This document shows, one piece after another, positions 20,016 to 44,722 of a stretch of DNA of 64,000 nucleotides. The stretch is from an uncultured Chloroflexia bacterium (lineage in GTDB: Bacteria; Chloroflexota; Anaerolineae; Anaerolineales; UBA4823), in assembly GCA_963840255.1 (NCBI GenBank), contig CAWIYB010000005.1:384007-448006 (forward strand). Reading direction: 5' to 3'. Position 1 is the stretch's first letter. Each line of letters begins with the position of its first letter. The position numbers were made by a program, and so were the translations under genes. The notes under the pieces are model-generated. The model ran no database searches. It was not told the DNA's origin and saw only the letters and a program-made list of their open reading frames with translations.

Positions 20016-20126
20016 GGTACCCTCCTTTCGTTGTTATGGTAGGGGCCAAAGGATTGGAATTTTTGTTGCTGCATCCCAGTCGGTAAAGATCTGGGTGACT
20101 GGATTAATTATACTATTATTGGGGAT

Positions 20127-20198
20127 AGGCATTTAGGTAATTAGGCAATCAGGTAATTAGGTAATTAGGTAATTAGGTAATTAGGTAATTAGGTGAAT
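20127..20198. repeat. Tandem octamer array, AGGTAATT x 9
   Basis: Read directly: aggcattt aggtaatt aggcaatc aggtaatt x5 aggtgaat. It lies about 110 bp upstream of the panB start and belongs to the same motif family as the arrays at 44636-44722 and 45222-45268. Confidence 0.9.
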
Positions 20199-21166
20199 TG
20201 ATGTTTTTTTTCAGATAAATTACGCCAATCGTATCCTAAAAAATCGAAGAGGAACGACTATTCTATTGTCAGGCTGAGCAGGTTCAGTTGAGGCAAGTGA
20301 ATGACAGTCCGAGAATTAATAAAAAAACATAAATTCAAATACATTCAATTCTCTGATGGGCTGAGAGATTTGGGCGGGAAATGGATTGGTGCAGATAGAC
20401 GGGATCGCATGGAAGAAATGAGGAATATTTTTCCTATTCTATTATAGCACATTTGTTCTAATTGTCAAGAGTAATTACTCACCAGAATCGATAATAACGG
20501 TAGATCATGAGTTGTGCCAAGGGAAGATTGCTTCGACAAAAGGCGTCTCGCAATGACAGAACATTTCTTGAATTTCTAAACTATGACCCTTGAAAGCGTT
20601 AGAGTGAACTCGGTGAGAAGTTACTGTCAAGAGGGAATTTTGGGAGGGGGTATACGATAGAGAAAAATAATGTCACAACGAGTTGTCAAACATTCAGACT
20701 GTCTCACCACCATCCAGGGGCCTGATATGGTATTTATCCGAAAGCAGATTCACGGGGGAAGAAGGAAAACACCAGCGCAGTAGCATTGTTGTCTTCCCAG
20801 AACATCTTCAAAACTTTGTTAAGGTATTACAGAAAAGTATAAGCTCTCTAAATCAAGGTTAATCATAATATTGCTTTGATAGTATTCTTAAAAATATTCT
20901 CAATCCGGAATCGCCCAAACTGGCTAATCAGCTCACACTATCCGGGTAGTTACTTGCGCTTTAGTCGAGCCACACCTGTTACCTGCTCCATACCAACCAG
21001 TATGGCAAAACCTGTTCAGCAAAGCAACCACCACTCCACCTAGATCCCGTAATAACCCGCTTATGTTCTTAACCCCGCTCCATCACCAGGTCTTCACTTT
21101 ACTAAGGTCACCTGCAATGGGTAATTAAGCCCCCACAATCTATTCGCCGATACTCTGCAAAATATC

Positions 21167-22882
21167 TTATATCCCTAAAAGTAGATTCTTCCGGTAGGGT
21201 TTGTCCCGGCTACATGTTCTTCCAACACCCTCCACGGATTGCCCAATAAAAGACTTACCACACTCATAACTTTCATTAATTCTCCTTTCAGGCTCCCTTA
21301 ACATGTCACCGGCTCCCTCTCCGTTCACTTCAAATACCAGCCACAACTTTCCCGTCCCCGGCTCATAGACCGCATCATAACCCCATGTTCTAGTATTATC
21401 AGTAGAATACCTGGTCTTGCCGCCAGTCATCGGTAACGCCGGTTCGCCGACGCTCTCTTGGTTCATTAATGTTTCATACACCCCAATCTCAGTGACGGGG
21501 ATATTTTTAAAAATTTCTACTTGTCCGGTTTGCGGGTTCCAGGCACTTAATTCCTTTAAGGTTATCTTGTTACCGGCTTTAAGCCACTCCACAAATTGGT
21601 TGTAGGTCATGTCTTCTGGTAAATTGCCGTCCGCCTGCATTCTGGCCAAAGCCACTTCCTGCCAATAACGGATAAAGAGCCCTTGGTTCCGCCATGTCAT
21701 CCGATAGTCCGCCCCCAAGGCCTTCTCATTCAGGGTGATTGAAATCCCTAGTCCCGGCGACCGGTCCGCCTCCACCGCAATCGTGTCGTGGCCGGAGGTC
21801 CTGACCATGTAGTCAAAATAGGTTTCGCCGGTAGGTACCAGCGCCCGGGCCGCGGCGTCATAGCGGTTTACTTGCCAGCCAAATACCAGCTCCCCTTGGT
21901 AAGCCGCGATCACGTGCCATTCGGGGTCAAGATAGGCTACTAACTGCCTGTTCTTGATGGCTACGAAGTCATTATTTGTCCACGGCGACAAGCTCATCGA
22001 CTGCCAGACTGGACAGCTCTCGTGTGCCATAGATTACGTACGCTCCCTTCTCCCACCTCATTAAATGGCCGTCCTGGATGGTAAAACCTTCCCGCCAGAC
22101 CTGCGCCTCCTTGTCCCAACCCAGTTTTCTCCCGGCCGAGTTGTGGACAATACCCTCCTCATCAATCACTTGATTGCTCCCGTTTAGCTCTACCAACGCT
22201 TTCACTTTATTATTGAAGCTTACCACCAGCCCCTCGGTTGTGGGAAGAAGTCGGTCGGCCTGAACAGGTATTTCCCGCTTCCCTAGAGCATCAGCCACAG
22301 TGACTTTCATTGGGGTAAAGCTCTGGCCATCCCAACTGGCCAGGTGCTTATTGTCCATCGTAAACCTAAGCCAGTTACCGTCAGCGGTTGGGACCAGCCA
22401 CATGACCACCTGGCCTTCCTGGTTCAAAACATTGACGCTCCCGTTCGTTTCCGTTTCGTAAGTGACGTTACCTAAGAGGTTACTAACCTGAACCTTCAAA
22501 TCCGCTGGAACGGTGCCAGCATCAGCCCACTCGCCCGCGTCAGCGTCAAAACGATACAAGACAACACCGTCGGATGCACAATCTTGTTCTCAATTATTTG
22601 CGCTCCTTCTGGGAGGGTTCCATTCGATAATACGATCGCTTGATACTCACCAAGGGAGGCATCCCACGCAAGTAATGCACCATCGCGGATCACAAAAGGT
22701 TCGGGGATAGGTGTAGAGGTCGATGTGGGTTCAGGTGTGAACGTGGGCTGAGGTGTCTCCGTGAGAGTGGTTGGTGGATTGGTAGGAATTATGACAGTGG
22801 CTTGTGGGAGTGGTAAGACTGAGCAGGCTGCCAGAAACAGAACCAGGACAAACGGAAAAATTGTTATGATACATCTAGTCAC
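21167..22882 (-). pseudogene. Secreted lipoprotein-like gene split by two apparent frameshifts
   Basis: Three consecutive same-strand ORFs (22882-22496, 22559-21972, 22030-21167) overlap by 64 and 59 nt. Only the first has a signal peptide and lipobox (LFLAACS) plus a Pro/Thr linker. Sense continues across the frame changes: ..IIENKIV / ASDGVVLYRFDADAGEW.. and ..DELVAVD / NNDFVAIKNRQL.. Confidence 0.5.
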
Positions 22883-22969
22883 CTTTGATAGTGCAAAAAC
22901 GAATGTGGAACATTATAAATCATATTACCAGGAATTATTTCTCTCCGGTTCTGTGTCGATAGTCCTGGA

Positions 22970-23491
22970 TCAACGATCGATTTGCTCTCTCAGCTCGCTC
23001 AGACTCGCTTGGATAAGCTTTAAGCGTTCCAGCTCTCTTGGGCTAAGCCGTTCTTCAAAATCCCTAGGGCGATAATTATAGTGATCGATATACCCCTGGA
23101 TTCTATTTCTTCTCGCATCAACATCAGGAACACCACGAATTTTGGGCGAATATTGGTCGTTGCTGACCATCCACTGGTCAAAAGGCACATCTCGCTTGGA
23201 ATCGTCACATTGAGCACAAGCAAGAACCATGTTACCGATGACTGTCTCTCCCCATCGCTTGATGGGCACAAGGTGGTCCCAGCGCTTTACATCCTGGGTG
23301 CCACAGAAAACACATTCGGGGTTCTCCTGATTGAAATATGTTAGGATCTTCTCGATCTCTAGCATACGGAAATCCCGCCTTCCCAGACACTCAGACAGAG
23401 CTCGATCAACCATTGAAAATGCAAATCCAGGAGTTGTCCGCCCAGGCACCAGAGGTATTTTTACCATGTAATTATCTCCAATATTTGACAA
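22970..23491 (-). CDS. HNH endonuclease
   Basis: 173 aa with the HNH core CVFCG..x..DHLVPIKRWGETVIGNMVLACAQCDDSK and a coiled-coil-like C-terminal tail. Confidence 0.8.
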   Translation of the reverse strand: MSNIGDNYMVKIPLVPGRTTPGFAFSMVDRALSECLGRRDFRMLEIEKILTYFNQENPECVFCGTQDVKRWDHLVPIKRWGETVIGNMVLACAQCDDSKRDVPFDQWMVSNDQYSPKIRGVPDVDARRNRIQGYIDHYNYRPRDFEERLSPRELERLKLIQASLSELREQIDR

Positions 23492-23779
23492 TGATTTCTA
23501 TGGAAGCATGTTTGAGCTATGCCCTAACCGATGATTATGCATCCCAGCATTGGCAGTATGGCACAAACCCATATTCATTATACGAGAATTTTTACCGATT
23601 GACCCACGAAAACTAGTCTCTATAATCGGCATATGACCAGTTTAGAATCCCATTGGATCAGTCCGGAGGAAATGATCCTAAATCTTCAGGAGAACCTCCG
23701 TCAGCACCGCGAGAATAAATATGCTTTTCAGGTCGGCTTGAAAGATGTCGATTTTGAAATAGCGAGAAACATACCAGAC

Positions 23780-24558
23780 GTTGGGTTTCGCACGGGAGAG
23801 CATTATGCTCAATCCGGTTCAAGTACAAACAGGATGACCCCAACCTGCATCTCTGCCTAACAAACCGAAAAATTACGGAGACGTCCCCGCGGGGCGTCTC
23901 TACGAAGAAAAGGCTGCTGGGTGTCGCAAAGATCACTTACTCCGGTTTTAGAACAACCGGACAGGCACACCTTACCGATACCCCCGGACAGAGCTAGATT
24001 TTGGATCAATTCCTGACTTACAAGTCGAGAAGGCGTCGCTGAGAGGCTCCGGTAGAGCGTCTCTACAAAGGAAAGAATGTTGGGTTTCCCCTCGAAGAAA
24101 TCTCGGGACAGGCGCAAAGATCGCTCAATCCGGTTCAAGTGCAAACCGGATGACCCCAACCTACAACTGACTGGTCTAGTCGTTGTAAATCCATAAAGAG
24201 CAGATTGCCGCAGCGCAAGAAAAACACTTGCGCTTCGCAATGACGGGATATTTTTGGGACTTGTCCGATGTTTTGTCCGAAGGTCAGAAATCTGCGATAT
24301 TGGAGACGCCCCGGCGGGGCGTCTCTACAAGGGAAAGAATGTTGGGTTTCGCACGGGAAAGCATCGCGCTCAATCCGGTTCAAGTGCAAACCGGATGACC
24401 CCAACCTACCTCTCCGCCTGATAAACCGAACGATTTCGGAGACGCTCCGGTGGAGCGTCTCTACAAAAGAAAAGATGTTGGATCAAGTCATGGTTGGTGT
24501 AATCCGAGCCAAAACGACCACTGAGACGCCCCGGCGGGGCGTCTCTACAAAGAAAAGG
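23780..24558. repeat. Mosaic of interspersed hairpin repeats (families A, B, C, F)
   Basis: A hairpins (GAGACGCCCCGGCGGGGCGTCTC followed by TACAAnGnAAAG): 23878-23900, about 24041-24063 (degenerate), 24303-24325, 24438-24462, 24523-24545. B elements (GTTGGGTTTCGCACGGGA..CAATCCGGTTCAAGTGCAAACCGGATGACCCCAAC): 23780-23844, 24079-24160, 24341-24405. C element: 24201-24244. F element: 24261-24292. Confidence 0.85.
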
Positions 24559-24565
24559 CGAATTA

Positions 24566-26488
24566 TTATGGGCAATCCAACCATTCAATGGGCTGACTGC
24601 CAGCATTACCCAGTCCATAACCAAAGGGAAAGAGCGGAGCATCACAACCGGTGAGATTAGCTGAGTTATTGATGTTGATGGGCAACTGATCGTTCGAACG
24701 CGGCCAGGTGTAGGGGAGTTTGCCGACGAATGGATAATCTCCAAACAATACATCGGCCACGCCCGCCCCCTCCGAGCCCGGCAGCCAGGCAGCCACCCAG
24801 GCTTCCGCGGTTTGGTACTGGTCGGTGATCACCAGCGGACGACCAGACAGGATCACCACGATCAATTTATCCACTTTCGGGCGTATTGCGTTGATGACCA
24901 TCTGATCCACCGGATAGAGGGTTAAATCTGCCTTATCCCCCAGCCCTTCTGCATAGGGCACCTCACCCACAATCGCAATACCCAGCGGGGCCTTTCCGCT
25001 GAAACTCACAAATTGACCCGAGCTATCGAATAACACTTGCGTATTGGGACCAGCCAGCTTTTGGACCCCATCCAAGATGGTTGTACCCTTAAGGGTGTTC
25101 CTTTGCTCCCCCTGCCAATCCAACGTCCAGCCGCCTGCCTGGATCCCGGTGCTGTTGATACCGGCTACCAGGATGGTGGGGACATTTTTATCGATCGGAA
25201 GAGCATTCTTCTCGTTCTTCAGCAGCACCAGCGACTCGCGCACCGCCTGGCGAGCCAGGGCTCTGTGCTCATCCGAGCCGACCGTGGCGGCCAGGCCTGG
25301 ATCACCGTAAGGATTTTCGAACAAGCCCAGCATGAACTTGGCGCGCAGGATACGGCGGACGGCATCGTCAATGCGCGCCTGGGTAATATCGCCATTCAGC
25401 ACCGCCTGTTTCAGGGTGCCGATGAACAGCTGATAATAGTAGGGCACCATATTCATATCAACGCCTGCATTGATGGAAGTCACAACAGCCGTGTAGTAAT
25501 CGGGATCCACCTGATTGATGCCGCCCCAATCAGAGACAACAAAACCCTGAAAACCAAGCTCACCCTTGAGGACATCGGTCAGTAAATAGCGCTGGGCATG
25601 CATCCTTACCCCATTCCAGCTGCTGAAGGAGACCATCACACTCATAGCGCCAGAATCCACGGCCGCCTGATAGGGAGGCAGGTACAACCGGCGCAACGTG
25701 ACTTCATCCACCTGCATGTCGCCCGTATCCAGCATATACTGAAAGTACATGTATTGCTTAATTGAGCCCCAGGTGGTTCCTCCATCGCCGATATAGTGTT
25801 TGGGGGTCGCCAAGGCATAAAGGGTTTGACCATCGGTGGCATTGGAACCTGCGGGGATGGTTTGAAATCCCTGGATATAAGCCGATGAGAGCTCAGTAAC
25901 CAAGGCAGTATCTTCGCTGAAGCCCTCATACGTGCGACCCCAGCGGATATCTTGTGGAACAGCCACGCACGGGGCAAAATTCCAGGGGATACCGGCGGCG
26001 CGCATCTCCTCGGCTGTCACCTGCCCGATCTGGCGCACCAGCTCCGGGTCGCGCATAGCTCCCAGACCGATGTTGTGGGGAAAAATCGTAGCACCATTGA
26101 CGTGCGCAAAACCATGTACCGAATCGACCCCGAAGACCAGGGGGATGGCCAGGCGGGTAGTAACCGCCTCAACCTGATAACTCTTCGGTATTTCGGTCCA
26201 ATCTGCAAGCGAGTAAAAGCCGCCACTGTTCCCACCACTCAGTATGGAGCCGATGAAGTATTTGGCAACTTCAGCAGGGGGAAATAAATAATAGGGGGAA
26301 ATGCTGCCATTTTCCACCTGAGTCATCTGACCAACCTTCTCATCCAGCGTCATGCGGGAGAGCAAATCTTCCACGCGCACTTCCACCGGCTGGGTAGGAT
26401 CCTTATACGGCGCTAATTTCGACTTCGAGGAGCACGAGACTAATAGAACGACAAGCAGCAAAAGAAAGGTTGTGCGTTTCATATTCAT
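24566..26488 (-). CDS. Glycoside hydrolase family 3 (beta-glucosidase/BglX-like), lipoprotein
   Basis: 640 aa with a signal peptide and lipobox (LLVSCSS), GH3 N-terminal motifs (GVDSVHG, KHYIGDG, FVVSDWGG) and a C-terminal sandwich domain. Confidence 0.9.
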   Translation of the reverse strand: MNMKRTTFLLLLVVLLVSCSSKSKLAPYKDPTQPVEVRVEDLLSRMTLDEKVGQMTQVENGSISPYYLFPPAEVAKYFIGSILSGGNSGGFYSLADWTEIPKSYQVEAVTTRLAIPLVFGVDSVHGFAHVNGATIFPHNIGLGAMRDPELVRQIGQVTAEEMRAAGIPWNFAPCVAVPQDIRWGRTYEGFSEDTALVTELSSAYIQGFQTIPAGSNATDGQTLYALATPKHYIGDGGTTWGSIKQYMYFQYMLDTGDMQVDEVTLRRLYLPPYQAAVDSGAMSVMVSFSSWNGVRMHAQRYLLTDVLKGELGFQGFVVSDWGGINQVDPDYYTAVVTSINAGVDMNMVPYYYQLFIGTLKQAVLNGDITQARIDDAVRRILRAKFMLGLFENPYGDPGLAATVGSDEHRALARQAVRESLVLLKNEKNALPIDKNVPTILVAGINSTGIQAGGWTLDWQGEQRNTLKGTTILDGVQKLAGPNTQVLFDSSGQFVSFSGKAPLGIAIVGEVPYAEGLGDKADLTLYPVDQMVINAIRPKVDKLIVVILSGRPLVITDQYQTAEAWVAAWLPGSEGAGVADVLFGDYPFVGKLPYTWPRSNDQLPININNSANLTGCDAPLFPFGYGLGNAGSQPIEWLDCP

Positions 26489-26972
26489 CTTACCCGTTCA
26501 ATGAGGTTTTTCCTTACAACAGAATGACTTCGACTTGCACATCACCGACAGCAGCGGAGACGACCGTCCCGGCAATATGTGTTACCAGGCGGTTTAAGGT
26601 CCAATTCCAGGCGAGGGGTCTAGTTCGAAAAAACAGCTGACCGATTTGGCTCATTGCATTTCACTGAGAGGCGACCCATGAAACATGTTTATTAAATGCA
26701 AGTTGTGCAGGTAAAGTATACACCCAGCCACCTGAGAAGTATAAATAAATTGTTGAGTCTCTTTAAAATCGCGCTTAAGAAGATTGAGGGGTGGATCCCA
26801 GGTAAACGGATAAGGTAACGGATTAGCGGATTTTTATTCGTGTATCAGGTGCTTCAATCATGTATTGGGTCGAGAAGTTTTTTTACGTAGAAGATAGAGC
26901 CGGTCTACGTCTGCCAACTCTTTTCGATTACGATTGATAATTATCCTCTATATCCCTTAGTAAATTTAAGTA

Positions 26973-27142
26973 TGGGGTTTCACATAAACCGCTCTATCCG
27001 GTGATAGAACGAACCGGATGACCCCAGCCTCCAACTGACGGGCTAGATAATATTCTATTACCGTGGATTCGCGACATTGGTTATCAAGGTGACAGTCAGC
27101 AACCTTTGAGCTCTAGCGGAGACGCTCCGGTGGAGCGTCTCT
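26973..27142. repeat. B-type plus A-type hairpin repeat copy
   Basis: The B variant at 26973-27029 (..ATCCGGTGATAGAACGAACCGGATGACCCCAGCC) shares the tail CAACTGACnGGnCTAG with the copy at 24160. The A hairpin GGAGACGCTCC-GGT-GGAGCGTCTCT lies at 27118-27142. Confidence 0.8.
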
Positions 27143-27154
27143 ACAAAGAAAAGG

Positions 27155-27808
27155 CTACAAATTCAGGAAGGCGAGGGTGCGATCCCAAGACAAATTGGCG
27201 GCAGCCTGGTTATATGCATCCGTGCGGTCAGGCTCGAAAAACCAGTGCCCGGTGCCAGGGTAAACGTAGAAAGTCACCGGACGCCCAGCACGCTTCAAGG
27301 ATTGCTCCAGGGAATCGACATTGGACTTCGTCTCATACTGATCGTTCTCGGCGAAGTGACCAAGGTAGGCGGCTCTCGAGGTGCTGAAGTCAGTGCCCAT
27401 GGTCCCTTCGGTGCCGTAAAAAAGGACCACGGAACGGATGTGTTCGGGATCAGCAGCGGAGAGATCAAGGGCGAAAAAACCACCCAGCGAGAAGGCAAGC
27501 ACGGCAAGTCCGCGATCGGTCTGTCCAACACGTTCGCTGAGAAACAGGGCAGCCTCGGCGACCTCGGCCTTCGCCTGGAGGTAATTCGCATCGACAGTGC
27601 CGCCCAGGATTTCTGCATCAGGAATGGTGTCGGCGACCTTACCATGGTAGAGGTCAGGGGCGAAAGCGATGAAGCCAGATGCAGCCAGCTGGTTACAGAC
27701 TCCCTTGATGGTGTCGTTCAACCCCCACCAGGCATGCAGAACCAAGACGCCGGGTCCCGAGCCGGTGGGCGGGAGGGCAAGAAAGCCTTGAGGTTGAGGA
27801 TGTGTCAT
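27155..27808 (-). CDS. Dienelactone hydrolase family protein
   Basis: 217 aa alpha/beta hydrolase with VLHAWWGLN, the nucleophile elbow FSLGG and the C-terminal YPGTGHWF. Confidence 0.85.
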   Translation of the reverse strand: MTHPQPQGFLALPPTGSGPGVLVLHAWWGLNDTIKGVCNQLAASGFIAFAPDLYHGKVADTIPDAEILGGTVDANYLQAKAEVAEAALFLSERVGQTDRGLAVLAFSLGGFFALDLSAADPEHIRSVVLFYGTEGTMGTDFSTSRAAYLGHFAENDQYETKSNVDSLEQSLKRAGRPVTFYVYPGTGHWFFEPDRTDAYNQAAANLSWDRTLAFLNL

Positions 27809-27903: not shown

Positions 27904-28419
27904 TTAGTGCTGCGAAAGGAAGCTCGCAACATCCGAAATAAAAATTAAGCTCTCGGTCTCGATTTGGTCGGTCAAGGTATCCAGATCACCAAAATCCGGA
28001 TGGGCAACCAGAACGGACTCCACAATTGAATCAACGCCTTGTGTAGATGGAACAAGGTGATATTTATCCCAACCGCTTTCAGTAATCAATTTCCAGTATT
28101 TTTGTTGGACCTGTTTGTTAGAGCCTGCCAACCAGGCTTCAAACCGGAATGCCTGATGGACAAAAACAATGGCAACTTTCAAGTTCCGCTGGTGCAATGC
28201 TTGGGGATAGAAGGAAAAATAGGTCATATCCATATAGCCAAAATAAATGCTGCCGGAGACGAAATAGTCAGGATATTTCTTTTGAAAATGAATGCGCAGC
28301 TGCATGATGTATTCCATCAATCCCTTATAGGCGATTTGAATTTCACCCTGCTCCAGCTGCTTGCGATATTCAATTATGGATTCGTAAAAAGTCGCCAAAA
28401 TTGATCTCCTCCCCTGCAT
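27904..28419 (-). CDS. Hypothetical protein
   Basis: 171-aa ORF with no overlapping competitor of comparable length. I do not recognise a family. Confidence 0.45.
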   Translation of the reverse strand: MQGRRSILATFYESIIEYRKQLEQGEIQIAYKGLMEYIMQLRIHFQKKYPDYFVSGSIYFGYMDMTYFSFYPQALHQRNLKVAIVFVHQAFRFEAWLAGSNKQVQQKYWKLITESGWDKYHLVPSTQGVDSIVESVLVAHPDFGDLDTLTDQIETESLIFISDVASFLSQH

Positions 28420-42490: not shown

Positions 42491-42685
42491 TGGACAGATT
42501 ATACCCGTAAATGGATGATTGTCTCTCGTAATGGAAATAAAAGATGCATTTCCAAACCAATCTTACACCTTTTTCTGCGATAGGATCGTAGAAGTCTGAC
42601 AATATAATACAGATCAGACAGAGGTCAAAAATCCCTTATGTGCAATGATCATCAAAGGTCTGAAAATTAATTTGACGTCATATTG

Positions 42686-43266
42686 GAAATTGCCAAGCAA
42701 CACGAAGAACGCTGGCAACCTGCAATGACAGGAGGCTTTAATAATTGTCACAGGTATTTTTCAAAAGTAAGAAACACTCGGGTTCGGACAAAAGTTCGGA
42801 AATTACATCTTTTCGGCTAATTTATAGGGTATACACCTTGAAAAAACAGCAAATTGGAGATTGCCACAGCATAAGAAGAACACGTGCGCTGCTGATGACG
42901 AGTAATTACTCACTAAAATCGAGGGAAAAGGTTGATGGTTAGTATTGACAGTAGAAGATAACTCCCCGAAACCCAGCGGGGATAAACGCGATCATAAAAA
43001 GGAATATGTTGGATTTCTACAGTATCTGGACATTGCCTGATTGAGATATTTTGGAACAGGAAGATTGCTTCAAGACCAGAAGAGCACTGGTCTTTTCCCC
43101 GAAATAAAGCGGGGATACTCCCCCAAGATCAGGGGGGATTCCGCAATGACAATTCGGTGATCCGATTTAGAAATTCAATATATGACGATCCGTATGGATG
43201 AAGCAGTGAGTAATAACAATGATGAGATTTTTTTATTATTGTCCGATGTTTTGTCCGAAGGTTAGA
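42686..43266. repeat. Second mosaic of hairpin repeats (families C, E, F and CCCCG-N8-CGGGG hairpins)
   Basis: C elements (GA[AG]ATTGC..GCAATGAC or the GCTGATGAC variant): 42686-42729, 42856-42899, 43059-43150. E element GAGTAATTACTCAC: 42900-42913 (also at 20469-20482). F element TTGTCCGATGTTTTGTCCGAAGGT: 43239-43266, with an imperfect inverted copy at about 42781-42805. CCCCGAAAnnnAGCGGGGATA: 42964-42984 and 43097-43117. Confidence 0.8.
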
Positions 43267-43275
43267 GAAACGGTC

Positions 43276-43303
43276 TTGACAGAAAATCACAATTGTCGAT
43301 AAT
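43276..43303 (+). promoter_or_regulatory. Candidate sigma-70 promoter for the pheST leader
   Basis: TTGACA (43276-43281), a 16-nt spacer, then GATAAT (43298-43303), just upstream of the T-box leader. Confidence 0.5.
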
Positions 43304-43319
43304 AGGGAGAACAAGAATA

Positions 43320-43590
43320 AAGGCTTAGAAAGAGGAAAGTAGCTGGATCGGAACCAACAGGGAAGTGTTGGGCAGAGACTGAGACCCCACCGGGTAATGT
43401 TCCAGCGAAGTTCCCTCCGGAGCCGTCTGCGTGAATGGGATACCTGCTAGTAGCGCGGAACGCAGCCCAGGCGTTATTTTGGGAGCCGATCGCCAAAAGG
43501 TCGTCGGAAGAAGTGGGTCGCAGCTGCGACCAATAAGGGTGGTACCGCGGGAAACGCCTCCCGTCCCTTATCGGGGCGGGATTTTAATTA
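43320..43590 (+). promoter_or_regulatory. T-box leader (tRNA-Phe sensing) with intrinsic terminator
   Basis: Hallmark T-box sequence AATAAGGGTGGTACCGCGGGAA at 43532-43553. A terminator stem CCCGTCCC/GGGGCGGG followed by ATTTT lies at 43559-43585. AGTA and AGAGA-like boxes occur upstream, and a TTC (Phe) codon sits in GAAGTTCCC at 43411-43413. The downstream gene is pheS. Confidence 0.85.
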
Positions 43591-43603
43591 ATAGGAGGTG
43601 ACC

Positions 43604-44629
43604 ATGTTAGCAGAATTAAACCGGATTGAGCAGCACGCACTCAAAGCTTTGGAGGCCACCCAGGATGAAACCAGCCTGGAACTCTGGCGGGTAGCTTACC
43701 TGGGTCGGTCTGCACCATTAATGCCCATCTTCGACCAGCTGGGAAAACTCTCCAAGGAGGAAAGACCAGCCGTCGGAAGGCGTGCAAATGAGGTGAAACA
43801 AGTCTTGGAAGCTGCGTACTCAGCCCGGCTGAAAGCTTTACGCCAATCAAGCCTGCAACACTCGCTGCAGTCAGCGCGTCTGGATGTTACCCTTCCCGGG
43901 CGAGATTTCCCGATCGGGCGGCTCCATCCTGCCACCATCTCGATGCGCAGAGTAATACGCGCCTTCGCCGATATGGGGTTCCAAGTTTACCGCTCTCCGG
44001 AAGCAGAAACGGATGATTATAACTTTAGTCTGCTTAATATGCCTCCAAACCACCCGGCGCGGGATATGTATGACACGTTCTATACCAGCATGCCCAACAT
44101 CTCTCTACGTCCGCATACCTCTCCGGGCCAGATCCATGTGATGCGGCAATATGCGCCAGAACCCATCCGGGCGATCCTGCCAGGGATGTGCTACCGGTAT
44201 GAACAGATAAACGCACGCCATGAAACCCAGTTTTATCAGCTCGAAGTGCTCGCAGTGGGTATTAACATCACCCTCGGTGACCTGAAAGGTACCCTGGGCG
44301 ATTTAGCTCACCGCCTGTTTGGCCAAAATATCCGCACCCGGTTCAGAGCGTCCTACTTCCCATTTACCGAACCGAGTGCTGAGTTTGACTTTGAATGCCT
44401 CATATGCAGTGGTAAAGGATGCCCGGTCTGCAGCTGGTCTGGCTGGCTAGAGATTGGAGGCTGCGGTATGGTGCACCCGACGGTGCTGCAAAATGGAGGC
44501 TATAATCCGGAAATTTTTTCGGGCTTCGCCGCTGGTTTGGGTATGGAACGGATGATGATGCTGAAACACCGCATCGAAGATATACGCAATTTCTGGGCGA
44601 ATGATATGCGCTTTTTGGAGCAGTTCTAA
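43604..44629 (+). CDS. pheS: Phenylalanine--tRNA ligase alpha subunit
   Basis: About 341 aa with class II motifs (HPARDMYDTFY, FRASYFPFTEPSAEFD, GFAAGLGMERM). ATG 43604 is preferred because AGGAGG (43593-43598) lies 5 nt upstream. The track's GTG 43598 overlaps that Shine-Dalgarno sequence. Confidence 0.95.
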   Translation: MLAELNRIEQHALKALEATQDETSLELWRVAYLGRSAPLMPIFDQLGKLSKEERPAVGRRANEVKQVLEAAYSARLKALRQSSLQHSLQSARLDVTLPGRDFPIGRLHPATISMRRVIRAFADMGFQVYRSPEAETDDYNFSLLNMPPNHPARDMYDTFYTSMPNISLRPHTSPGQIHVMRQYAPEPIRAILPGMCYRYEQINARHETQFYQLEVLAVGINITLGDLKGTLGDLAHRLFGQNIRTRFRASYFPFTEPSAEFDFECLICSGKGCPVCSWSGWLEIGGCGMVHPTVLQNGGYNPEIFSGFAAGLGMERMMMLKHRIEDIRNFWANDMRFLEQF

Positions 44630-44635
44630 GTAGTA

Positions 44636-44722
44636 GGCGATCAGGGATCAGGCAATAAGGTATCAGGTAATAAGGTAACAGGTGATAAGGTATCAGGTAA
44701 TTAGGTAACAGGTAATCAGGAT
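44636..44722. repeat. Tandem GGTAAT-type array (alternating 8/7-nt units, 15-nt period)
   Basis: ggcgatca gggatca ggcaataa ggtatca ggtaataa ggtaaca ggtgataa ggtatca ggtaatta ggtaaca ggtaatca gg. It begins 7 nt after the pheS stop. Confidence 0.9.

Follow-up and report, generated by a model that had tools for sequence, protein, structure and literature searches.

A cluster of GTAG-tagged hairpins beside a Chloroflexota GH3 gene, most probably a REP array with a BIME-like layout

The gap between a glycoside hydrolase family 3 (GH3) gene and an HNH-domain protein gene in this Chloroflexota genome most probably holds a cluster of REPs with a BIME-like mosaic layout, in which one of two recurring hairpins, A, is a GTAG-tagged REP of subclass 2.4. 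To judge by its sequence, A belongs to the type with stem GTAGAGACG...CGTCTC(TAC), which is the DNA substrate of subclass 2.4 RAYT/TnpA-REP (Bertels group 4), and the region falls among the known kinds of intergenic repeat in bacteria and is not a new system. A sequence-only reading of this DNA had left the repeats without a named family and had offered three identities for them: a REP/BIME-like family, a MITE-like family and a cluster of small structured RNAs. The first of these is borne out by the GTAG tag and hairpin of A and by the occurrence of the same core beside, and mostly also inside, RAYT genes elsewhere. As to the name, A can be placed in the subclass 2.4 REP type, whereas the second repeat, B, stays an unclassified companion. 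For the purpose of annotation, the gap is to be labelled a REP cluster.

Anatomy and layout of the array

Within the window, by which we mean the whole 64-kb stretch of DNA that was analysed, the repeats occupy positions 23780-24558 of a 1074-bp gap (23492-24565). The description of this gap as filled with repeats therefore holds for 23780-24558 but not for its first 288 bp, which are unique sequence. The sense strand of the flanking genes is the minus strand, such that the HNH-domain protein gene (22970-23491, minus strand) is the downstream neighbour and the GH3 gene (24566-26488, minus strand) lies upstream of the repeats. Because GH3 orthologues have 638 aa, the true start of GH3 is probably two codons inside the ORF. 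A second gap with repeats separates GH3 from a dienelactone hydrolase (DLH) gene (27155-27808, minus strand), beyond which lies the gene for a DUF7000 protein (27904-28419, minus strand). The HNH-domain protein is small and stand-alone (173 aa) and has generic HNH-domain matches only; on the basis of its size, of matches confined to the level of the HNH domain and of the lack of an RNA match, we rejected a link via this neighbour to IscB/HEARO omega-RNA.

Five A hairpins and four B elements lie in 23780-24558 in a single orientation throughout, in agreement with the five A and three or four B copies counted in the sequence-only reading, and the following intergenic gap (26973-27144) contains one more A and one more B, so that the 64-kb window has six A copies spread over two gaps. 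The core of A is a 23-nt palindrome, GAGACGnnCC-N3-GGnnCGTCTC. On the minus strand, all six copies consist of a GTAG tag, which directly precedes and overlaps the stem, and then the palindrome with a 10-bp stem and a 3-nt loop (mismatched in A1 and degenerate in A2), and a pyrimidine-rich 5' context, CCTTTTCTTTGTAG, is conserved at the window copies; read on the plus strand, the copies continue into CTAC and then an A-rich tail, CTACAAAG(A/G)AAAG. The published search rule for REPs asks for GT[AG]G at 0-2 nt from a stem of 7-20 bp with a loop of 2-5 nt (PMC6006769). The tag of all six A copies falls within this rule, as do A3, A4, A5 and A6 with their fully paired stem of 10 bp, GC-rich at the base, and their loop of 3 nt. 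A search with GAGACGCCCC-N3-GGGGCGTCTC and up to three mismatches gave matches at 23878, 24303, 24439, 24523 and 27119, all on the plus strand, and none in shuffled sequences; GCGTCTCTAC occurs exactly six times in the window, and CTAC follows all six A copies.

The individual A copies, all on the minus strand, differ in how well the hairpin is kept. A3 (24303-24328) and A5 (24523-24548) are perfect, with the 10-bp stem and, in A3 as in the others, the 3-nt loop and GTAG tag. A4 (24439-24464) carries a compensatory change of a C-G to a T-A stem pair relative to A3 and A5 and is identical at 31 of 31 positions to A6 (27119-27144), which lies outside the span originally noted and shares the swapped pair. 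A1 (23878-23903) has the GTAG tag and 10-nt arms with a T/G mismatch at one arm position, and A2 (24041-24066), reading GAGAGGCTCC GGT AGAGCGTCTC, is degenerate with the CTAC/GTAG tag retained.

B is a nested hairpin of 60-86 nt in which an outer 6-bp stem, GTTGGG/CCCAAC, encloses a variable 5' internal segment of 8-33 nt and an inner 7-8-bp hairpin, TCCGGTT/AACCGGA. The pattern TCCGGTT-N8-AACCGGATGACCCCAAC matched at 23813, 24129, 24374 and 26997 where 0 matches were expected, and a B profile recovered five window copies, starting at 23780, 23916 (a variant), 24079, 24341 and 26973. All five are assigned to the minus strand. B4 (24341-24409) is the canonical copy and ends in CCTAC, corresponding to GTAG on the minus strand; B3 (24079-24164) also ends in CCTAC and has an extra insert of ~25 nt in the 5' internal loop. 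In B1 (23780-23848), which has the outer GTTGGG/CCCAAC stem and ends in CCTGC, the inner hairpin is TCCGGTT/AACAGGA, with a single mismatch, and the earlier description of the inner hairpin as perfect thus holds for B3 and B4 but not for B1. The variant B2v (23916-23977) combines the same inner hairpin with an outer GGTGT/ACACC stem, and B6 (26973-27033) lies in the DLH-GH3 gap. We also considered a tRNA or tRNA-like origin of B, as its loop reads GGTTCAAGT, and rejected it after ARAGORN found none.

Non-REP motifs recur between these elements, as in the mosaics of BIMEs. Two sites, 24061-24088 and 24322-24349, carry the A-to-B junction CTCTACAA[A/G]GGAAAGAATGTTGGGTTTC, which confirms that it is conserved twice, and a conserved B-to-A linker at 23849-23877 has its counterpart at 24410-24438 as part of a 141-nt B-linker-A repeat whose two copies (23780-23920 and 24341-24481) were found by a repeat finder to be 82% identical. 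C, E and F motifs recur as well: the C element (24204-24241) is a nested hairpin, ATTGCC-GCGCAAG...CTTGCGC-GCAAT, with similar units at 42690-42730 and 42860-42900, and the F element TTGTCCGATGTTTTGTCCGAAGGTCAGA (24261-24288, plus strand) has a second copy, 96% identical, at 43239-43266. Another feature of BIMEs and REPINs, inverted REPs that together form a larger hairpin, is absent, as the A and B copies are all on the same strand and the only inverted repeats that the repeat finder recovered in the array are A palindromes matching each other. On both strands the A+B unit is more stable than its shuffles (minus strand, z = -4.3; plus strand, z = -3.6).

Pfam offers no credible match for any of the five internal ORFs (89-127 aa); a single match, to a zinc-finger model, came at E = 0.075. 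As the sequence-only reading held, the ORFs in 23658-24753 are translations of the repeats and are, therefore, not to be annotated as genes. A screen for promoters and terminators, a further candidate that we rejected, gave no enrichment in the region. Over the whole window, the only Rfam match at the gathering score is a T-box at 43317-43571.

The A hairpin in other genomes and its RAYT genes

We scanned one genome per species with the A-core pattern GAGACGYYCCNNNGGRRCGTCTCTAC and inspected 8-kb loci around the matches. Among the matches listed, the A core is present at no fewer than 120 loci in more than 12 bacterial phyla, including Chloroflexota, Cyanobacteria, Patescibacteria, Planctomycetota, Acidobacteriota, Gemmatimonadota, Nitrospirota, Omnitrophota, Latescibacterota and Bacteroidota. 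About half of the matches listed have the full 29-nt palindrome GTAGAGACG...CGTCTCTAC, and half are one-footed like the window copies. Many of the A-core matches listed are in Nostocales. A literature search with the strings GTAGAGACG and GGAACGTCTC returned primer lists only.

Of 130 sites among the matches listed, 122 have Watson-Crick-compatible bases at the two variable stem positions, where independence predicts 25%; the compatible combinations are CC/GG (56 sites), TT/AA (56), TC/GA (8) and CT/AG (2). Together with the C-G to T-A swap within the window, this preservation of pairing across variants argues that the A hairpin itself is under selection. Among the double-foot copies listed, 5 of 70 are extended by at least 4 bp into larger palindromes, compared with 0.27 expected.

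RAYT-like genes were sought in the loci by an ORF screen for HuH and YIxxNP motifs, which yielded four proteins, and by tblastn, which yielded a fifth. They lie in five of the 8-kb A loci among the matches listed (L027, L049, L085, L103 and L105), as a single copy per locus. At the four RAYT loci that we inspected in detail, an A-type hairpin lies just outside the gene at a distance of at most 300 bp, and at five of six loci (the five scan loci and L122, from the assembly of a close relative) a hairpin is also present in frame inside the RAYT gene. Four of the five proteins match NCBIfam REP_Tyr_transpos with E = 1e-15 to 1e-17 at 55-63 bits, which is under the equivalog cutoff of 80, and three of these four match Pfam Y1_Tnp at ~23 bits, about the threshold. 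The genomes that carry the four genes are one each of Peribacteria, Chloroflexia, Deltaproteobacteria and Moraniibacteriota. With the Chloroflexia RAYT as database query we recovered 303 relatives, among them several to which JGI gives the name 'REP element-mobilizing transposase RayT'. Of the best 120 among these 303 relatives, at least 68 have VETPxxGVST directly after the HuH motif; the two A stem arms translate as VETP and GVST. On a speculative reading, which we regard as rather unlikely, the REP foot GTAGAGACGCC, near-invariant across more than 12 phyla among the matches listed, may owe this constancy to its place in frame (VETP..GVST) in the transposase; if so, substrate and enzyme would be tied together in their evolution by the in-frame foot.

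Motif and tblastn scans of the 64-kb window found no RAYT gene. The assembly ERZ25039461, which contains a GH3 orthologue with 88% aa identity (L125), encodes a RAYT of the same clade as those above, P0019, at L122; upstream of its gene lies an imperfect A-like hairpin, and an A-type REP is present in its reading frame. A putative RAYT in the window's own genome would mobilise both A and B.

The association with transposase genes also bears on two other accounts of the array. In the first, the hairpins act mainly as RNA, either as 3'-UTR stabilisers or terminators for GH3 and DLH or as a cluster of small structured RNAs. This would fit with the position of A5 and A6, whose stems end 20 and 13 nt, respectively, past the same-strand stop codons of GH3 (24566) and DLH (27155), with the close relative L123, in which an A also follows GH3 and a degenerate A follows DLH, with the high stability of the hairpins (A5 folds at -12.7 kcal/mol, z = -5.4) and with the report that REPs are mostly downstream of coding regions and are transcribed (PMC3733652). 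However, no U-tract follows A on either strand, the sequence there being TACAAAGAAAAG on the plus strand and AGTGGT on the minus strand; terminator-like sites number 5 compared with 4.0 expected, and none of them is a full A hairpin. Moreover, for the repeats Rfam gave no match at the gathering score and, in the region 23500-27300 at E <= 10, two chance-level matches; the B stems lack covariation; and five A copies in 0.7 kb far exceed the need of one 3' end. The same hairpin in and around transposase genes of other phyla points to a DNA substrate and argues against an action mainly at the RNA level, which we accordingly regard as unlikely, together with the small structured RNAs of the sequence-only reading.

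In the second account, A+B or B-linker-A is a single MITE- or PATE-like unit of ~105-140 nt derived from IS200/IS605, with the hairpins as its subterminal ends. The A-to-B junction that is conserved at two places and the 141-nt B-linker-A repeat agree with such a unit, and IS200/IS605 elements likewise end in hairpins, which a related Y1 transposase recognises (PMC6006769). Yet A and B also occur separately, with A5 and A6 lacking an adjacent B and B in L123 lacking an adjacent canonical A. A repeat search found no terminal inverted repeats beyond the hairpins, and reading of the sequence revealed no target duplications, which speaks against the MITE-like family proposed at first. Furthermore, the proteins beside A are of the RAYT type (YIxxNP, a single copy per locus) and not of the IS200 type, and motif and tblastn scans found no Y1 TnpA gene in the window. 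We consider this account very unlikely.

The B element and turnover between close relatives

Relatives of the window were compared at several degrees of divergence. An uncultured Chloroflexia MAG (L007), with 70.6% nucleotide identity to the window over one gene, has a one-footed A with a CTACAAAGG tail together with a B-like inner hairpin. GH3 orthologues with 85-90% identity are present in several long-contig assemblies, and the one at L123 (GH3 90% identical at the aa level) is syntenic with the window over an acyl-CoA dehydrogenase gene, DLH, GH3 and pantothenate genes. After GH3, L123 has only one degenerate A, which shares its left flank, ATATTG, with window A3 and is followed by an LRR gene where the window has the repeat array and the HNH gene. 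Between DLH and GH3, both the window and L123 have a B and an A, the latter degenerate in L123; in the gap upstream of panB, L123 has three or four B copies, as against none in the window. Further A or B copies occur at other loci of the relatives L007, L122, L123 and L124. The differing intergenic content at syntenic sites indicates that this lineage carries the elements in dispersed form and that close relatives differ by gains or losses of them; the 90%-identical relative shows that such clusters grow and shrink quickly. Tandem repeats of 8 and 15 nt are also present in the window and its relatives.

These comparisons weigh on the idea that the array is the product of one ancestral unit, duplicated locally in tandem and then decayed, with neither mobility nor function. 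Such a history could leave clustered copies in one orientation and a 141-nt repeat that is only 82% identical. It does not sit with the irregular spacing and order of the copies, the interspersed and unrelated C and F motifs, the A and B copies at other loci of the window and of relatives with differences in presence and absence, or an A that is common to many phyla and tied to RAYT genes. We give this idea hardly any credence. The unit is not unique to this locus, with A present in many phyla and B at other loci of a relative.

The ends and the distribution of B bear on its relation to A. Exact CTAC ends are found in two of the five window copies (B3 and B4) and in two of the three L123 copies, the remaining ends being CTGC, CTCC, TTAC or CTGT; B2v is the window copy closest to the L123 copies (88-90% identity). 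In one L123 copy, the tail of B is CTACAAAGAAAGAAT, identical to the tail after window A. From the CTAC end and the pyrimidine-rich context that the best copies have in common with A, and from this A-type tail, we suggest that B is a second, lineage-specific GTAG-tagged repeat that is probably handled by the enzyme of A or a related one. It is important to note that B has a 27-nt asymmetric internal loop, which lies outside the canonical REP rule (PMC6006769). Its stems are paired in 90.9% of cells across nine copies, and across these nine copies we found no compensatory substitutions, the stems being simply conserved; compensatory changes across copies are thus present in the stems of A but not in those of B. 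Conserved stems that do not covary suit recently copied DNA and are neutral on RNA structure.

The B profile is absent from the other 120 A loci listed, JGI metagenomes contain one compact look-alike (L121) in uninformative surroundings, and Table S1 of Quentin et al. 2018 (PMC6006769) is without B. By these searches, B is confined to this Chloroflexota lineage. The patterns for B and for the A tail are absent from viral contigs, and a phage origin was rejected on this ground.

Several observations count against reading the region as a REP cluster. RAYT is absent from the 64-kb window, and the A and B copies are unidirectional; window A is one-footed, unlike the 'double foot' of most database matches; the CTAC ends are imperfect, B has an internal loop and no covariation, and the RAYT scores are below the cutoff.

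Proposed mechanism and comparison with known systems

If the REP-cluster reading that we prefer is right, the array could have formed as follows. By analogy with RAYT and IS200/IS605 biology, the A hairpin would form on single-stranded DNA, where a RAYT encoded elsewhere in the genome would recognise the hairpin together with the GTAG tetranucleotide. The enzyme would then cut and rejoin the DNA, and new copies would settle beside old ones in tolerant intergenic DNA 3' of genes. Repeated rounds could yield the irregular, BIME-like mosaic of A, B and linkers; the single orientation is not accounted for by this scheme. The hairpins may also have a role at the RNA level in that, as a possible side effect, read-through transcripts of GH3 and DLH with stable 3' hairpins could be slowed in their 3'-to-5' decay.

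We also considered that B and the A+B composite are an undescribed cargo of RAYT, i.e. a long nested GTAG-tagged element that is co-mobilised with a classical REP. In this case, B would share the pyrimidine-rich YTTTGTAG entry context of the REP, and the arrays in single orientation, rather than inverted REPIN or BIME doublets, would imply a different amplification route. We regard this proposal as speculative and rather unlikely to be correct.

BIMEs of E. coli are mosaics of Y and Z REPs with conserved linker motifs, and their mobilisation in trans by a single-copy RAYT is presumed. The array described here resembles these BIMEs and the REPINs of Pseudomonas in being an intergenic cluster of GTAG-tagged hairpins with short conserved motifs, mostly 3' of genes. 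It differs from them in that every A and B is a direct copy, whereas REPs in BIMEs and REPINs alternate or are inverted, and in that its second component, B, is not an inverted A but a longer nested hairpin of a different kind. Cyanobacterial SDR repeats are reportedly very short hairpin repeats that are mutually nested and occur alongside tandem repeats of 7-15 nt; the array may resemble them in its nested hairpins, in the tandem repeats and in the matches in Nostocales.

GTAG-tagged palindromes have been described in Chloroflexi and Cyanobacteria, downstream of ORFs and in some cases nested in larger palindromes (Di Nocera et al. 2013, PMC3733652). A shares with this superfamily the GTAG tag, unpaired or at the foot, the site downstream of ORFs and the nesting of some double-foot copies; its stem sequence is absent from the supplementary files of PMC3733652.

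The closest counterpart is the subclass 2.4 (Bertels group 4) of Quentin et al. 2018 (PMC6006769), which is characterised by 'double foot' REPs and by REP insertions in tnpA-REP that keep the frame. Chloroflexi are among the many phyla from which this REP type is reported, and in Table S1 of the same study Chloroflexus aggregans is listed with GTAGAGACGCACGGCCGTGCGTCTCTAC and a species of Bacteroidetes with a GTAGAGAC... REP (PMC6006769). Like the subclass 2.4 REPs with GTAGAGAC...GTCTCTAC, A has a stem GAGACG...CGTCTC with a GTAG/CTAC tag, and the shared features include a stem of ~10-12 bp and a loop of 3-4 nt. Window A differs in having a single foot, with GTAG on one side and G/T-GAGACG on the other, in place of the 'double foot', and in its pyrimidine-rich 5' context. 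The identity of the hairpin across phyla and its in-frame copy in the transposase are striking, yet they were already outlined in PMC6006769; with this locus, the subclass 2.4 REP type gains an example from Chloroflexota, in which possibly only B and the one-orientation array are new, both as modest variations on a known theme.

DNA adjoining the repeat array

Window positions 21167-23491 correspond to 8106-9812 of L123, a syntenic locus of a related member of the Chloroflexota; there, a gene for a 568-aa LRR protein is present instead of the HNH gene and the ORFs 21167-22030 and 21972-22559, neither of which had a family match. Because the HNH gene and both ORFs are exchanged for the LRR gene in L123, we conclude that the DNA adjoining the array is a variable island. 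On the other side of the array, the mechanically called ORF for GH3 (24566-26488, minus strand) encodes 640 aa vs 638 aa in all close orthologues, and the true start probably lies two codons further downstream.

A strong promoter-like site, TTGACC-16-TATAAT with 11/12 matches, is present on the plus strand at 23599-23626. Seven nt past it lies the ATG of a 75-codon plus-strand ORF (23633-23860), which has no Pfam match and extends into B1, the copy of the longer nested hairpin at 23780-23848. This arrangement therefore makes a plus-strand transcript across the array possible.

Other intergenic repeats and a T-box leader

A second intergenic stretch of ~0.8 kb (42500-43320) is dense in different short hairpin repeats. 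It contains units resembling the nested C hairpin, ATTGCC...GCAATGAC (42690-42730 and 42860-42900), CCCCGAAA...CGGGG hairpins (42963-42985 and 43098-43116) and, at 43239-43266, a copy of the F repeat of the array. Directly past this copy is a promoter-like TTGACA box (~43276). The plus-strand interval that follows, 43317-43571, is a T-box leader, scoring 109 bits against Rfam RF00230, and is located upstream of the ORF 43598-44629.

Intergenic tandem arrays with units of 8 nt (TAGGTAAT) and 15 nt (GGTATCAGGTAATAAG) were observed at 20126-20205 and 44630-44719, and similar arrays occur in related Chloroflexota (L123 10640-10740; L007 1000-1125). A conserved intergenic motif of ~40 nt, ATTATAGCACAnnTGTTCTAATnnnCAAGGGGT, frequently adjoined by GAGTAATTAC, is found at 20440-20483 in the window and in L007 (~510-440, minus), L102 (~4215, minus), L122 (~9764, plus) and L123 (~10079, minus). 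Within it lies the near-palindrome GCACAnnTGTTC, which is similar to an operator of the form GAAC-N4-GTTC.

REP sequence within RAYT genes

Among P0006-P0125, the best 120 of the 303 RAYT homologues found with the Chloroflexia protein, at least 68 carry, directly past the HuH motif, the peptide VETPxxGVST, which is the REP translated in frame. The middle residues of the peptide follow the REP loop sequence (RR, KL, NL, HW or ES), and some RAYT proteins have two to five copies in tandem. The loci with the in-frame peptide are L027, L049, L085, L103 and L122.

Tandem arrays of half-REPs were also observed, at ~1960-2110 in L049, 5' of the RAYT gene, and in L004, L041, L083 and L106. One example consists of ~10 GTAGAGACGCCCCGCC-like units of 10-16 nt each with one complete hairpin at the end; such arrays point to slippage, or to several rounds of cutting and rejoining at the hairpin. 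Separately, the related Chloroflexia MAG locus L007 contains at ~640-560 (minus) a distinct double-foot REP, GTAGGGGCGCAGGGGA...TCCCCTGCGCCCCTAC, with a long loop, and these genomes therefore harbor several GTAG REP families.
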